Shown here: positions 8,547 to 52,944 of the stretch, piece after piece
Layout: each line of letters begins with the position of its first letter
Numbering within the stretch: position 1 is the first letter of the stretch
NCBI GenBank assembly: GCA_023250205.1
Contig: JAHFBE010000003.1
Location: 1-56,450 of the forward strand
Reading direction: 5' to 3'
Length of the DNA: 56,450 nt
DNA from: Candidatus Melainabacteria bacterium
Lineage (GTDB): Bacteria > Cyanobacteriota > Vampirovibrionia > 2-02-FULL-35-15
Notes under the pieces: generated by a model
The model's input: the letters and a program-made list of their open reading frames with translations, nothing else
Told to the model about the DNA's origin: nothing
The model's database searches: none
Position numbers and translations under genes: made by a program

Positions 8547-8629
8547 GTCATTGCGAGCCGAATGAAATAAGGCGTGGCAATCTCCTAACGTTTTGGAGAT
8601 TCCCACGTCGCTTTGCTCCTCGGAATGAC
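8547..8629. repeat. REP-like palindromic element, GTCATTGCGAG family, copy 1
   Basis: gtcattgcgag...ggcaatctc...gagattccc...ctcggaatgac; intergenic, downstream of rpe. Confidence 0.85.
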
Positions 8630-9390: not shown

Positions 9391-9519
9391 GTCATTGCGA
9401 GGAGACACGAAGTGTCGACGCGGCAATCTCATTTTGCAATACTGTTTATGAGGGAACCTTGCGAGCGGTATCTTAGTGTGAGATTGCTTCGTCAGGACTT
9501 TGTCCTTCCTCGCAATGAC
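9391..9519. repeat. REP-like palindromic element, copy 2 (expanded loop)
   Basis: gtcattgcgagga...cggcaatctc [~50 nt] gagattgcttcg...tcctcgcaatgac. Confidence 0.88.
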
Positions 9520-11618: not shown

Positions 11619-11750
11619 GTCATTGCGAGGAGCCCGTTTAACGGGCGACGAAGCAATCTCATAAACGTCACAGGTCATTCTGAGAATTAGCGAAGAATCT
11701 TCTAATGTTTTGGAGATTGCCACGCCTCACTTTACTTGGCTCGCAATGAC
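11619..11750. repeat. REP-like palindromic element, copy 3, with a nested half-element (gtcattctgag...gcgaagaatct, 11674-11700)
   Basis: Outer arms gtcattgcgag / ctcgcaatgac; inner arms gcaatctc / gagattgc. Confidence 0.88.
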
Positions 11751-11791: not shown

Positions 11792-11819
11792 GTAAAGGCA
11801 ATTCATGAATTGCCTTTAC
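11792..11819. repeat. GTAG-type short palindrome gtaaaggcaattcatgaattgcctttac
   Basis: Perfect 28-bp inverted repeat upstream of secD; resembles GTAG-tagged REPs. Confidence 0.7.
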
Positions 11820-28891: not shown

Positions 28892-28964
28892 GCCGATGTA
28901 GCTCAGTTGGTAGAGCAAGTGCTTCGTAAGCACTGGGTCGCAGGTTCAATTCCTGTCATCGGCT
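28892..28964 (+). tRNA. tRNA-Thr(CGT), CCA not encoded
   Basis: gccgatg/catcggc acceptor stem, agctcagttggtagagc D-arm, agtgc-ttCGTaa-gcact anticodon arm, ggttcaattcc T-loop. Confidence 0.95.
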
Positions 28965-29085
28965 TGAAAAAGATTTTAAGCGAAGATTTTCTGAAAACGA
29001 AAATCTGAGCGTAGTGAAGGAAGTAGACTGTAGATCTGTGCAAAGCTGATTTTAGTCTCTGCTAAAATCAGCGGTGTATAAAAAC

Positions 29086-29137
29086 AGCAAGTGCTTCGTA
29101 AGCACTGGGTCGCAGGTTCAACTCCTGTCATCGGCTT
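29086..29137 (+). repeat. 52-bp direct repeat of the tRNA-Thr 3' part (att-like duplication or pseudo-tRNA)
   Basis: Matches 28914-28965 with one mismatch (aattcc vs aactcc). Confidence 0.92.
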
Positions 29138-29144
29138 TGAAAAT

Positions 29145-30731
29145 ATGCTTACCCGTCGCCAATTTAACAAATTATTATTAGCTACAGCTTTATTCCCTAC
29201 TGTTGCGTGTACTCAATTAAGAAAAACAAATTTTATTCCTGGTGTTCTTAGATTAAATCTAGGTTTTGAACCAGATACACTTGATTGGTTAAAGGCTACA
29301 GACTCTTACTCATTTGATGTGATTACAAATATAATGGTTGGACTTACAAAGTACAACAATGAATTAAAATCCATTCCTTCTTTAGCAAAAGGCTGGAAAA
29401 TATCAAATGACGGAAGGACTTATCATTTCTTGCTGGATAAAGATGCTAAATGGTCAGACGGAAGACCGCTGCTTGCTGAAGACTTCATCTATAGCTGGGA
29501 AAGAATTTTAAATCCAGAAACTGCAGGACCATACGCATACTTACTTTACCCAATAAAAAATGCTGCCTTATATAATACTGGAAAAATCCAAGATCCAAAA
29601 CTGCTTGGGTTTAAAGCGATTAACGATGGTGTTATTGAAGTAAATCTAGAATCACCGCTTGCATTTTTTTTAAATCTCACGTCATGGGCAGTATATTTCC
29701 CTCAAAGAAAAGACATTGTTGAAAAATATAAAGATGACTGGACGGAGCCGCAGAATATGGTGACTTGTGGTCCTTTCTTACTTGACAAATGGAAACATGA
29801 GTATAAGTTGTCCCTTAAAAGAAATCCTTATTATTTAAATCCAATTCCACTCCTTGAGCAAATTAGATATTATATGGTTCCTGAGCAATCCAGTGCATTC
29901 TCTCTTTATTTAAACAATGAGCTTGATTTTATTGACAATAGATCTATTCCAATTAGTGAGATTGAAACAGTAAGGAAAATGCCTGAGACAGAAATCTACC
30001 CCTTGCTTCGAGGAACTTATATCGGTTTTAATGTAAATAAACCCCCATTTGATAACAAATATGTTCGAGCAGCATTTTCTCATGCAATTAACAGAACGGT
30101 TTTCCCAAAAATATTAAAGCGCGAGGAAGCTCCAAGTTCTACCTGGATACCTCCTGGCTTAAAGGATTTCTACTCTCCTGATATAGGTTGTAATTTTGAT
30201 GTGAATAAGGCACGTGAGTTTTTAGCTAAAGCTGGTTTTCCAAATGGAAATAATTTTCCTAAAGTGACAATGCATTTCCCAACCAGAGAAGATGCAAAAT
30301 TAATTGCTGAGTCTGTACAGGCATTATGGAAAAAAATATTAAATGTTGATGTGGAGATCGTTAATCAGGAATGGAAGGTTTACCTCTCTACACTTCAAAG
30401 AGATCCTCCACATATGTTCAGGATGAGCTGGGGAGCTGATTTCCCTGATCCAGATACCTTTATGACTTTATTTACAAGTACTTCAGGAAACAACCATGGC
30501 AGATGGAAGAATAAAACTTATGATGAATTAGTCTTGCAGGCTGCTACTACACTGGACTTATCAAAAAGAAAAATTTTATATAAAAAAGCTCAACAACTTC
30601 TACTGGAAGAAGATATTGCAATTGCACCATTGTTTTTTAATACTCAGGTTTTATTAAATAAGCCATGGGTCAAGAATCTTAAATTTAATGCAATGGATTT
30701 AGTTTTTTGTGAAGATATCGCTGTTAAGTAA
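29145..30731 (+). CDS. oppA: Oligopeptide ABC transporter substrate-binding protein with Tat/lipoprotein-type signal
   Basis: MLTRRQF...FPTVAC signal; EPDTLD, AKWSDG.P..AEDF.YSW.R..NP, GPFLLDKW, WGADFPDPDTF. The ORF-track GTG at 29091 lies in the tRNA repeat, so ATG 29145 is preferred. Confidence 0.92.
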   Translation: MLTRRQFNKLLLATALFPTVACTQLRKTNFIPGVLRLNLGFEPDTLDWLKATDSYSFDVITNIMVGLTKYNNELKSIPSLAKGWKISNDGRTYHFLLDKDAKWSDGRPLLAEDFIYSWERILNPETAGPYAYLLYPIKNAALYNTGKIQDPKLLGFKAINDGVIEVNLESPLAFFLNLTSWAVYFPQRKDIVEKYKDDWTEPQNMVTCGPFLLDKWKHEYKLSLKRNPYYLNPIPLLEQIRYYMVPEQSSAFSLYLNNELDFIDNRSIPISEIETVRKMPETEIYPLLRGTYIGFNVNKPPFDNKYVRAAFSHAINRTVFPKILKREEAPSSTWIPPGLKDFYSPDIGCNFDVNKAREFLAKAGFPNGNNFPKVTMHFPTREDAKLIAESVQALWKKILNVDVEIVNQEWKVYLSTLQRDPPHMFRMSWGADFPDPDTFMTLFTSTSGNNHGRWKNKTYDELVLQAATTLDLSKRKILYKKAQQLLLEEDIAIAPLFFNTQVLLNKPWVKNLKFNAMDLVFCEDIAVK

Positions 30732-34961: not shown

Positions 34962-35065
34962 CGCCTTCCTTGCTCATTCTTCGCTTGTCAGGCTTTGCAT
35001 AGTGCATCTAGAGAGCTTCTTGTAATGTTATCCAGATTTTACCGAATAAATCGGATAAAATCTTA
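34962..35065 (-). repeat. 104-bp structured dispersed element, copy A
   Basis: Its reverse complement aligns with 42026-42129; contains the hairpin agattttatccga-tttat-tcggtaaaatct. Confidence 0.88.
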
Positions 35066-35156
35066 TTTTATAAACAGCTTATTTCGAAATGTTACACTAG
35101 CTAGGTAATAACATTTGTGATCCCTGACACTTTAATATTAATATAAAAATTTCTTT

Positions 35157-42025: not shown

Positions 42026-42129
42026 TAAGATTTTATCCGATTTATTCGGTAAAATCTGGAAAACATTATTGAAAACAGTTCAGATGCACTATGCAAAGCC
42101 TGACAAGCGAAGAATGAGCGAGGAAGGCG
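42026..42129 (+). repeat. 104-bp structured dispersed element, copy B
   Basis: taagattttatccgatttattcggtaaaatctgga...agatgcactatgcaaagcctgacaagcgaagaatgagc(g/a)aggaaggcg, shared with copy A. Confidence 0.88.
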
Positions 42130-42229
42130 GATTAGAAATAAATTCTAACTCGGGATATAATACTGTGGCTTCTTTGCTCATAGGGATTATAATAGCAAAG
42201 AAAAGCTAGGAAAATATAAGAGCTTGGGT

Positions 42230-43603
42230 ATGAAAAAAAATATAGCTGAAATATTAAAGAAAATTGACAAGGATCATTACTCTTTACTTATTGATATTGG
42301 GAATGTATCTAAAGAATTAGGATTGAGATCTTATCTTGTAGGTGGGATGGTTAGAGATCTTTTACTTAGTTCTAATAATTTGGATATAGATATAGTTGTT
42401 GAAGATCATGCAAAAGATTCTCCGGCAAAACGATTGGCTGATGGGCTTGTTCGAAAGTCTTCAAATTATGAACTATCAGCAAAGCATGATCGATTTCATA
42501 CTGCCAAAGTGATTTTTAATGTTAATGGAAAAAAGATTCCAATTGATTTAGCTTCTACAAGAGAAGAAAACTATAAAGAGTCAGCTGGACTTCCTGACAT
42601 TACACTTACAAATTTAAAAAACGATCTAAAAAGAAGAGATTTTACTATAAATGCTCTAGCTGTTTCACTGATGCCAGATGATTTTGGGGAAGTTGAAGAT
42701 TTCTTTAATGGCTTAGAAGATCTTGAATTAAAAAAAATCAATATTGTTCCAAATGAAGGAAGACTACAAAACAATACATTTATTGAAGATCCTACCAGAA
42801 TGATAAGAGCTGTACGATTTGCTTGTAAACTGGGTTTTAAGATTGAGGAAAATACATGGAAGCTTCTTAAAGAGACCATGGATTCAGGAGTTTTTGATAA
42901 TTTAATTGAAAAAATCAGGGGTGATAGAGTAAAAATTGAAATCAGGTATTTGTTTAACCTGTCTAATGTAGAAGAGGCAGTTAAAGAATTTTTTGAATCC
43001 GGAATTTATAGGATGGTGTCAACGGAATTGAATTCCCGTAGTGACGCGATCAATCGCGTTACTATTGGCAATGATATGCCAAATCAATGGCTCATTTATC
43101 TTGCCATTGTTATGAAGGATTTAAATCCTGGTATGCAGGAGCAAATAATGAAAAATCTACAAATGCCCGGGGATGAGATAAAGGTTATACGGTCTGGGTT
43201 TAATGTGTTAAATAAATTGAATGGAAACAGTTCAATTAATCCTATGCTTGTTTATAGAGAATTAAAAAATTTATCTATGGAAAGCATAGTAATGGTTAAA
43301 ATGTTAAGTGTCATTGCGAGGAGTGAAACGACGAAGCAATCTCAAAATCGAGAAGAAGTTAATGAGATTGCTTTGGACTCGCGTCCTCGAAATGACATGA
43401 ATGAGTTAGCTTTGTTAATTGATGAATATCTCTCAAAGACCTCAAAAATAAAACTAGAAATCACAGGTCAGGATTTAATTAATATTGGTGTTCAAGAAGG
43501 CAAGAAAATAGGTGAAATTTTAGATAAAGTCCTTGAAATGAAAATCAAAAATCCAAATATGAGTAAGCAGGATGAGGAAAGAGAAGTAAAGAATTTAATC
43601 TAA
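42230..43603 (+). CDS. cca: Class II tRNA nucleotidyltransferase (CCA- or A-adding) with two in-frame palindromic insertions
   Basis: VGGMVRDLLL..DIDIV, RRDFTINALA, EDPTRMIRAVRFA, C-terminal ITGQDL..G..G..IG.IL. Confidence 0.9.
   Translation: MKKNIAEILKKIDKDHYSLLIDIGNVSKELGLRSYLVGGMVRDLLLSSNNLDIDIVVEDHAKDSPAKRLADGLVRKSSNYELSAKHDRFHTAKVIFNVNGKKIPIDLASTREENYKESAGLPDITLTNLKNDLKRRDFTINALAVSLMPDDFGEVEDFFNGLEDLELKKINIVPNEGRLQNNTFIEDPTRMIRAVRFACKLGFKIEENTWKLLKETMDSGVFDNLIEKIRGDRVKIEIRYLFNLSNVEEAVKEFFESGIYRMVSTELNSRSDAINRVTIGNDMPNQWLIYLAIVMKDLNPGMQEQIMKNLQMPGDEIKVIRSGFNVLNKLNGNSSINPMLVYRELKNLSMESIVMVKMLSVIARSETTKQSQNREEVNEIALDSRPRNDMNELALLIDEYLSKTSKIKLEITGQDLINIGVQEGKKIGEILDKVLEMKIKNPNMSKQDEEREVKNLI
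43038..43065. repeat. GTAG-type palindrome within cca (gtagtgacgcgatcaatcgcgttactat)
   Basis: 12-bp arms with one mismatch; GC-rich in an AT-rich gene; encodes part of RSDAINRVTI. Confidence 0.65.
43310..43396. repeat. REP-like element, copy 4, in frame in cca (87 bp = 29 codons)
   Basis: gtcattgcgagga...gaagcaatctc...gagattgct...tcctcgaaatgac encodes VIARSETTKQSQNREEVNEIALDSRPRND. Confidence 0.93.
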
Positions 43604-52685: not shown

Positions 52686-52753
52686 GTCATTGCGAGGAGG
52701 TACCTTAGTACCGACCCGCTCCGCCCGCGGAACGAGGCGAGCGCGGCAATCTC
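52686..52753. repeat. Left half of a REP-like element with a GC-rich insert
   Basis: gtcattgcgagga...cggcaatctc is present; no matching right half follows directly. Confidence 0.7.
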
Positions 52754-52849: not shown

Positions 52850-52944
52850 GTCATTGCGAGGAGGCTCTAAAAAAGCCGACGCGGCAATCTCCTAACGTTC
52901 TTGAGATTGCTTCGTCACAACTAAAAGTTGTTCCTCGCAATGAC
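52850..52944. repeat. REP-like element, copy 5
   Basis: gtcattgcgagga...cggcaatctc ctaacgttctt gagattgcttcg...tcctcgcaatgac. Confidence 0.9.

Follow-up and report, generated by a model that had tools for sequence, protein, structure and literature searches.

A dispersed palindromic repeat read in frame within a tRNA nucleotidyltransferase gene of a Candidatus Melainabacteria bacterium

Relation to described palindromic repeats

The palindromic elements of Rickettsia (RPE; Ogata et al. 2000, 2002; Claverie & Ogata 2003), as they are summarised in PMC3733652, lie in frame in many housekeeping genes and add an extra peptide at tolerant positions of proteins that remain functional. The same features were encountered in the DNA analysed here, a stretch of 56,450 nucleotides (nt) from contig JAHFBE010000003.1 of a Candidatus Melainabacteria bacterium (the window), where an 87-nt palindromic repeat is read in frame within the gene of a class II tRNA nucleotidyltransferase. 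The best explanation, to which a probability of about 0.8 is given, is that these 87 nt represent one copy of a dispersed non-autonomous hairpin repeat, carried as a passenger in a functional enzyme. As with RPE, the insertion is in frame and orthologues exist without it: 27 copies of the repeat were found in frame in about 23 open reading frames (ORFs), and the 29 residues encoded by the insert are absent from 11 of 11 species representatives of the window's family, two of the same genus among them, and from the nearest relative, P0002. RPE behaviour would also entail a peptide that is expressed in vivo and exposed at the protein surface; the present insert is predicted to lie between two helices, with half of it disordered. 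The host of RPE is an obligate intracellular alphaproteobacterium, whereas the Melainabacterium of the present case is free-living or from groundwater and has a genome of 2.1 Mb. Unlike the RPE cases, a decay series and a recombination mosaic occur here within one orthologue group. RPE-1, the classic case, differs in sequence from the element and is longer, about 100-150 bp.

The CGTC-tagged repetitive extragenic palindromic (REP) sequences comprise the families CGTC-1 to CGTC-4 (Di Nocera, De Gregorio & Rocco 2013, BMC Genomics 14:522; PMC3733652); RPE-4 corresponds to CGTC-4 and RPE-6 to CGTC-1, and dRS3 of Neisseria is also of the CGTC family. These REPs have no dedicated transposase and are mostly inverted dimers, high in copy number and mainly intergenic, with a terminal CGTC tag that is often TGTC (or CCTC); intragenic REPs are documented in several species, where dimers encode 20-30 amino acids (aa) in known genes (PMC3733652). 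The element of the window bears such a tag and likewise occurs mainly between genes, as 146 inverted pairs. Its conserved tail reads CTC, whereas the unpaired tail of CGTC REPs has the consensus CCA (PMC3733652). The hosts of CGTC REPs include Bradyrhizobium, sphingomonads and Micavibrio, in which the exact termini of the element occur too; the five phyla listed include none of the cyanobacterial lineage, whereas the present element comes from Melainabacteria (PMC3733652). Pairing of the termini was found in every member of the window's family, in Bradyrhizobium, sphingomonads, Micavibrio and Rickettsiales, and also in Bacteroidota, Chloroflexi, Patescibacteria, Planctomycetota and Microcoleus.

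In the REPIN/RAYT systems two inverted REP units and a spacer make up a non-autonomous doublet, as they do here, and a single-copy nuclease gene is flanked by REP units in the way that arms of the element flank a GIY-YIG gene; their tag is GTAG and their enzyme an HUH/Y1 transposase, whereas here the tag is (C/T)GTC and the protein of the GIY-YIG type (PMC3116915, PMC2817692). A 28-nt GTAG palindrome family coexists in this genome beside the CGTC-type element.

The layout is also that of NTS-ssnA-NTS (Nat Commun 2025;16:2388, PMC11893778), in which the motif stands on both sides of a gene for a single-domain GIY-YIG protein of about 95 aa. The Ssn motif starts with CGTCATT..., forms a palindrome and has a conserved C right after it, which is the base most crucial for binding; in the element, (C/T)GTC-ATTGC...GCAAT-C-TC, this C is invariant, whereas the palindrome differs (ATTGC... 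here, ATTCCCGCG... in Neisseria). The Ssn nuclease, a member of cd10448 (GIY-YIG_unchar_3), cleaves its motif sequence-specifically and in single-stranded DNA only; motif and gene are found together across genomes (PMC11893778). In the Melainabacterium one intact and one broken GIY-YIG gene lie each between a left and a right arm of the element (Table 1), and the arm-GIY-YIG-arm unit was found in 7 of 12 loci of relatives. Element and gene likewise co-occur among 61 genomes of the class, 13 having both, 5 the element only, 9 the gene only and 34 neither (Fisher p = 3e-4, uncorrected for phylogeny). The 98-aa Melainabacteria protein matches Pfam GIY-YIG (PF01541, 53.6 bits) and, weakly, PDB 1ZG2 (UPF0213, E = 0.0085); an NCBIfam search of the protein gave no family match. 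The published role of Ssn is the control of transformation, and in-frame copies are outside the subject of that paper (PMC11893778).

Judged by its sequence, the element can be filed as a divergent member of the superfamily of CGTC-tagged REPs and Ssn-related motifs. In-frame insertion is a known behaviour of a known repeat superfamily, to which the present case adds a new host gene and a phylum from which CGTC REPs had not been listed, together with a clear in-frame decay series, as well as evidence for recurrent landing sites and for a repeat-bounded mosaic block. The first-pass annotation of the window had suggested that the route to new peptide sequence known from Rickettsia operates in an unrelated lineage; this is supported, but not as an independent invention, since the element belongs to a superfamily that includes RPE-4 and RPE-6.

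The insert, its host gene and its repeat family

The first base of codon 363 of the ORF is 43310 (42224 + 362 x 3). The first-pass annotation had an 87-bp element beginning on this codon and adding 29 aa without a stop, between ...MVKMLS and MNELALLIDEYL; coordinates, translation and flanks were all confirmed, and the 29 stop-free codons of 43310-43396 read VIARSETTKQSQNREEVNEIALDSRPRND. The tags of this copy are TGTC...GACA, and its right terminus, CTCGAAATGAC, has one mismatch. The 87 nt fold as a single long hairpin of -38.1 kcal/mol (z = -7.0; equalled by 0 of 200 shuffles), the strength of which, as minimum free energy per nt, is the family median (rank 77 of 144). The spacer subtype was found also at G000:C4:11303 and G001:C2:207714 and in the inserts of two orthologues, P0003 and P0004. 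In an AlphaFold2 (AF2) model of the host protein, built on 26 orthologues and having a mean pLDDT (predicted local distance difference test) of 84.9, the first 14 inserted residues extend helix 352-376, the next helix spans 391-404, and residues 377-390 are disordered, with pLDDT of 44-51 within 371-390. The insert is thus modelled as joining two helices of the C-terminal (tail) part of the enzyme.

Read from its TTG start, the host ORF encodes 459 aa; the database entry begins six bases later, at the ATG at 42230, and has 457 aa. The identical protein is on record from two contigs, one of them 112 kb long, and its homologues carry Melainabacteria annotations. Pfam matches are PolyA_pol head, PolyA_pol_RNAbd and tRNA_NucTran2_2. 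The class II CCA-adding and A-adding enzymes are recognised by GGxVRD...DxD, RRDFTINA and EDxxR followed by neck, body and tail helices, and the translation contains GGMVRD...DIDIV, RRDFTINA and EDPTRMIRA. The best NCBIfam matches are models of A-adding and CCA tRNA nucleotidyltransferases, all under their cut-offs (the top one, A-adding, scores 162.9 against a cut-off of 1440 bits), while the best PDB match is a full CCA-adding enzyme (3H37, E = 3e-43). The closest solved structures are the Thermotoga maritima CCA-adding enzyme and the Aquifex A-adding enzyme; the AF2 model superposes over its full length on 3H38/5HC9 with template modelling (TM) scores of 0.71-0.76, and 4WC2 also matches. 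Relative to P0002, the ratio of nonsynonymous to synonymous divergence (dN/dS) is 0.135 for aa 3-265 and 0.053 for aa 398-459, with 0.05-0.26 across all segments, and there are no stops or frameshifts. By these measures the host gene is intact and under purifying selection.

The genome is a 2.09-Mb draft in 83 contigs, with 33.6% GC and 86.5% completeness. The absence of an encoded CCA, noted in the first-pass annotation for the tRNA-Thr, is general: only Val-GAC and Gln-UUG encode it, and since 32 of 34 tRNA genes do not, CCA addition is indispensable. That the host gene itself is essential, as was also proposed, is something we infer, because the genome has another gene of the PolyA_pol family, which combines all head motifs with an HDIG domain. 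In several bacteria, cyanobacteria included, the reaction is shared by a CC-adding and an A-adding enzyme. The host gene and its HD-domain paralogue may form such a pair, and if this split applies, both are required. As a separate observation, in other families of the class (G044, G049, G039, G054, G024, G013, G019; L035-L045) the best match to the host enzyme lies in open frames of 880-930 aa, the size of cyanobacterial A-adding enzymes with extra N-terminal domains; the window's family has a short form of about 420 aa.

Table 1. Coordinates of the repeat copies, genes and related features (window positions unless a contig is named)
Feature	Position	Strand	Details
Class II tRNA nucleotidyltransferase gene (CCA- or A-adding), host of the insert	42224..43603	+	Assigned by Pfam, PDB, AF2, dN/dS
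Palindromic repeat copy (insert)	43310..43396; 43309-43397 with T...A tag bases	+	87 nt, codons 363-391, in frame
Left unit of insert	43310..43343	+	GTC tag remainder, ATTGC half-stem, variable interior, GCAAT half-stem, CTC tail
Spacer/loop of insert	43344..43363	+	20 nt, AAAATCGAGAAGAAGTTAAT, subtype AAAAACGTGAAAAAGTTAGG
Right unit of insert	43364..43396	+	Inverted orientation, one terminal mismatch
Mosaic block bounded by two repeat sites	43020..43420	+	About 400 nt; sliding-window identity, blastn gaps
Degenerate 28-nt GTAG...CTAT palindrome, hot spot 1	43038..43065	+	11/14 positions paired; in frame as SRSDAINRVTI
Intergenic copy of the repeat family	8547..8629		
Intergenic copy, long form	9391..9519		129 nt
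Intergenic copy, long form	11619..11750		132 nt
Intergenic copy	52850..52944		Partial left unit at 52686
Intact GIY-YIG gene between left and right element arms	C39:23047-23340; unit C39:22991...23381		98 aa
Broken GIY-YIG gene between left and right element arms	unit C54:2896...3300		
Second PolyA_pol-family gene	G000:C45:4418-5926 (L022:484-1992)	-	502 aa; all head motifs and HDIG domain

The sequence GTCATTGCGAG, with at most one mismatch, occurs 11 times in the window, against 0.29 expected, and none of 100 shuffles reaches this number. Besides the insert the window contains four full copies and one partial copy of the repeat, none inside a long ORF. The aligned copies share the invariant blocks GTCATTGCGAG and GCAATCTC, the latter unchanged in six of six window copies. 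A census of the genome gave 145 exact left and 144 exact right termini; the paired copies are 74-149 nt long, with modes near 85-96 and 120-132, and have a mean GC of 49%, against 33.6% for the genome. Each copy is composed of two inverted units, (C/T)GTC - ATTGC - variable interior - GCAAT - CTC, which flank the spacer. GTCATT is preceded by T in 95 and by C in 48 of the 146 copies, and AATGAC is followed by A in 112 and by G in 30, giving Y at -1 and R at +1. The isolated half-units, having a 5-bp ATTGC/GCAAT stem, fold with only -1.5 to -8.8 kcal/mol and z about 0 for most; the stable fold of the element is arm against arm. An Rfam search of the window returned tRNA only, and the element is therefore not a curated RNA family.

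Outside long ORFs lie 119 of the 146 copies; the 27 others (18%) are in frame, 20 in the VIAR...PRND frame, five in the xHCEE frame and two in the SLRG frame, so that the scan of the proteome for the VIARS-type peptide and the other frames, proposed in the first-pass annotation, was productive. At least 15 of the hosts are recognisable genes, with Pfam matches on either side of the insert or spanning it. Among the hosts are a PabB/TrpE-like enzyme, MetH, MurT, RecF, ValRS, HemC, LigA, a class II aldolase, RibE, a NadD-like protein and UbiD, as well as two MtnA paralogues and a methyltransferase with two inserts each, and a giant PKD protein. In the MtnA/IF-2B-family paralogues (G000:C7:67747-68985 and G000:C70:3129-4331; L003, L016) the two in-frame elements occupy identical positions, an xHCEE-frame copy being followed by a VIAR-frame copy, and the element sequences differ between the paralogues. 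This pattern suggests a fixed landing site or the in-place replacement of a resident copy.

The idea that the family is built for coding was rejected: of the non-coding copies only 24% combine an open frame 0 with a length of 3n, and in random 90-nt stretches of the genome a given frame is open in 25% of cases. Since such a share of the non-coding copies is already stop-free and of suitable length, selection can simply filter insertions, and the copies in genes are best seen as its survivors. Weaker hairpins in coding copies were likewise considered and rejected, the medians being -0.484 (coding) and -0.447 kcal/mol per nt.

Orthologues, mosaic block and origin of the insert

The host orthologue is conserved and syntenic in all 11 family genomes, each of which carries the repeat at other sites. 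In P0002 the syntenic locus shows 87-92% nt identity around the gene, and the segments flanking the missing insert are 92% and 88% identical in aa to the window protein. Altogether the insert is absent from 68 of 72 orthologues. Three metagenomic orthologues (P0003, P0004 and P0019) hold it at the same codon as the window gene. The gap in orthologues foreseen in the first-pass annotation is thus found in all 11 family representatives, but three metagenomic carriers exist and the gap in P0002 is not a clean one.

The carriers form a series. The insert of P0003 comprises 96 nt with perfect termini, in a host gene about 70% identical to that of the window; the 57 nt of P0004 correspond to the left unit and a junction that is accounted for by the deletion of 30 nt between AATGA repeats; P0019 retains the remnant VIAKGETTD, about 27 nt (protein level only). 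The 96-, 87-, 57- and ~27-nt versions are all in frame and stop-free, an indirect sign that the segment undergoes translation and that the reading frame limits how it can erode. The carriers have MLS or MLC before the insert and (M/V)NEL after it, residues that the non-carriers lack, and the inserted peptide is 69-76% identical between carriers.

Nucleotide identity between the window and P0002 is about 92% up to ~43020, falls to about 60% over ~43020-43420 and is at least 90% thereafter. The synonymous divergence (dS) in this block is 1.21, against 0.27 and 0.51 outside, and at identical codons synonymous differences amount to 39%, against 14-21% outside (Fisher p = 0.001). The raised synonymous divergence indicates a separate history of the block and not just relaxed constraint. 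P0004 and P0006, from one metagenome, are 93-100% identical up to the right end of an element at the first of the two sites described below, 77-88% from there to the second site, and about 92% beyond. In P0009/P0010, a pair without CGTC inserts, no comparable drop in identity was seen. Raised sequence diversity is likewise known in Neisseria, in genes adjoining dRS3/NTS (PMC11893778); here it occurs in the block adjoining the repeats. We infer that homologous recombination brought the insert into these lineages, or removed it from them, along with adjoining sequence, the joints lying at the repeats or close to them. It is tempting to speculate that intragenic repeat copies act as recombination joints which shuffle gene segments between Melainabacteria lineages; the breakpoints of the window/P0002 pair at repeats and the step in P0004/P0006 exactly at the element end are in favour of this idea, which is nevertheless put forward tentatively and is more doubtful than not.

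Across the 72 orthologues two loops of the enzyme are repeatedly occupied, at residues ~266-290 (site 1) and ~356-398 (site 2), and to judge from the alignment they are recurrent landing sites for two repeat families. Site 1, a low-confidence loop in the AF2 model (pLDDT 67), contains full CGTC-type elements of differing sequence in nine orthologues, the DNA of P0003 and P0004 showing perfect termini. In many other orthologues peptides of a 28-nt GTAG...CTAC palindrome (RDVxxNVST or VETPxxGVST) are present at site 1 or 2. The genome contains 25 near-perfect copies of this palindrome, against two in a reversed-genome control; by their sequence they look like GTAG-tagged REPs.

Several observations on these small palindromes stand on their own. 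They have the form GTAG-NN-...-NN-CTAC, with further examples at C74:17075-17102, C49:22800-22827 and, in the window (C26), 11792-11819; in orthologues they read as RDAINRVST- or VETPRRGVST-like peptides. In L025 (G002:C30) site 1 shows a tandem in-frame expansion, DVAYGG DVAYGG DVAYGG DVACGG DVACNVST, in which a piece of the small-palindrome peptide is multiplied about four times. The site-1 CGTC element of P0003 (L047:1645-1756, gene nt 780-891) has a GTAG-type palindrome, GAGAGACGCCCCACTGGGGCGTCTGTAC, nested in its left unit, all in frame.

The reading of the 87 nt as a passenger copy of a mobile repeat would run as follows. The element consists of two inverted units with outward (C/T)GTC tags and a 20-nt spacer, and would be moved or copied via single-stranded DNA intermediates by an Ssn-like GIY-YIG nuclease encoded between two arms. 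The insert would be transcribed and translated with the gene, adding, in the model, about 14 residues that lengthen a helix and about 14 that are disordered; its persistence is explained by a length of 3n, the lack of a stop in the frame used and a position where added residues leave the fold undisturbed. Once resident, a copy may be renewed or worn down in situ, through gene conversion and through deletions that run between short direct repeats and keep the frame.

As for how the window gene came by its copy, inheritance of the allele or its import by homologous recombination within the ~400-nt block is somewhat favoured over a fresh jump. The carriers share the codon, the spacer subtype and flanking residues that non-carriers lack, the window insert lies inside a block whose history differs from that of the rest of the gene, and no target consensus or duplication was found, all of which speaks against a fresh independent transposition into this codon in the window's lineage, with P0003, P0004 and P0019 as separate hits on a preferred target. 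Such transposition is the less probable account, yet a possible one that several findings suit: the perfect termini of the P0003 copy in so divergent a host gene, the different copies held by the two MtnA paralogues at the same two positions, and the nine differing inserts at site 1. Furthermore, a tree of the orthologues from which the hot-spot columns were left out pairs each carrier with a sister that lacks the insert (P0001/P0002, support 100; P0003/P0008, 89; P0004/P0005, 94; P0019/P0038, 91); this requires four changes and fits repeated independent insertion too. With this topology the history must involve repeated loss, repeated gain or recombination.

The tree is one of several points that weigh against the passenger reading or its parts. 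No clean empty site was found, P0002 differing from the window over the whole surrounding block. A donor of the block was not found either: a region-restricted protein search gave P0001-P0004 and P0021, none closer than 61%. For P0004/P0006 the block is evident in identity, but the synonymous-site test gives p = 0.15. In the flanks of the 146 copies there is no consistent target duplication, only the Y/R tags; 113 copies have no direct repeat, and in 27 it is 'AT', two bases that the palindrome itself includes. Taken modulo 3, the length of the ORF copies is 0 (15 copies), 2 (11 copies) or 1 (one copy), so that neither one insertion rule nor a fixed definition of the insert explains the frame. 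The transposon-like origin and mobility of Ssn have only been proposed (PMC11893778). As regards membership of the family, the stem of the element starts with AT as in CGTC REPs but has 5 bp enclosing 18-26 nt, against 8-9 bp and a loop of 4-5 nt (PMC3733652), and the variable interior often bears a small hairpin of its own, unlike that short loop. Finally, that the 29 residues are made is a conclusion drawn at the level of sequence.

Most likely the insert is a neutral or slightly costly passenger and not a new functional module. Its location in the tail region, which contacts tRNA in class II enzymes, the presence of the 5HC9 complex among the best fold matches, the predicted helix extension by its first half and the similarity of the peptide between carriers would suit an exapted segment, for example one that makes an extra contact with the tRNA elbow and is kept by selection on the protein. 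This is improbable, however, given the absence of the insert from nearly all orthologues, the nearest included, its variation in length from 96 to ~27 nt and its low pLDDT; moreover, the positions at which the carriers agree are dictated by the consensus of the DNA repeat, common to all 146 copies, and the same peptide occurs in about 23 unrelated proteins. Still less credence is given to a host gene that is decaying or untranslated, with CCA addition performed by the HD-domain paralogue, which has the full set of head motifs. The pseudogene alternative raised in the first-pass annotation is not borne out by the low dN/dS, the intact frame, the conserved synteny in the family, the confident fold prediction and the full-length fold match to the T. 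maritima CCA-adding enzyme, and under a CC/A split both genes would be needed, the best NCBIfam match being A-adding, though below its cut-off. Repeats can misassemble metagenome bins, and the genome is a draft of many contigs; nonetheless a repeat copy misjoined into the gene by assembly or binning is hardly conceivable, with the insert exactly in frame, the identical protein on two contigs and homologous inserts at the same codon in independent assemblies from other samples.

Further repeats and biological meaning

Two further repeats were observed in the window. A block of about 105 nt at 42026-42129, just upstream of the nucleotidyltransferase gene, contains the hairpin AAGATTTTATCCGATTTATTCGGTAAAATCT and GATGCACTATGCAAAGCCTGACAAGCGAAGAATGAGC and recurs inverted at 34962-35066, 6.9 kb away; its two halves are each found again on C31, C81, C18, C24, C1 and C54, and from its distribution the block would be a small dispersed repeat or a shared regulatory module. 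The 3' two-thirds of the tRNA-Thr(CGU) gene (28914-28974) are duplicated at 29086-29146, 172 nt downstream, with 93% identity, the second tRNA being incomplete; such a partial duplicate resembles the scars that integration into a tRNA gene leaves behind.

The data herein presented extend RPE-like in-frame insertion, and the association of CGTC REPs with an Ssn-type nuclease, to the non-photosynthetic lineage that is sister to Cyanobacteria. Such inserts are tolerated by about two dozen proteins of a genome of 2.1 Mb; many of these proteins are core ones, a tRNA-maturation enzyme among them. Annotators and structure predictors should expect segments of the VIAR...PRND, xHCEE...ARND and SLRG types to be repeat-derived loops. 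The orthologue group of the nucleotidyltransferase is a compact natural experiment, in which full, half and remnant copies stand at one codon and two repeat families compete for the same two loops, with a mosaic block between them, so that the birth, renewal and in-frame erosion of repeat-derived peptide segments can be directly observed. Segmental exchange has been proposed for the regions adjoining the dRS3/NTS repeats of Neisseria. If the role of intragenic copies as recombination joints holds generally, Ssn-associated repeats would promote segmental exchange inside essential genes, and in-frame repeats would be scars or tools of such exchange and not simple products of transposition.

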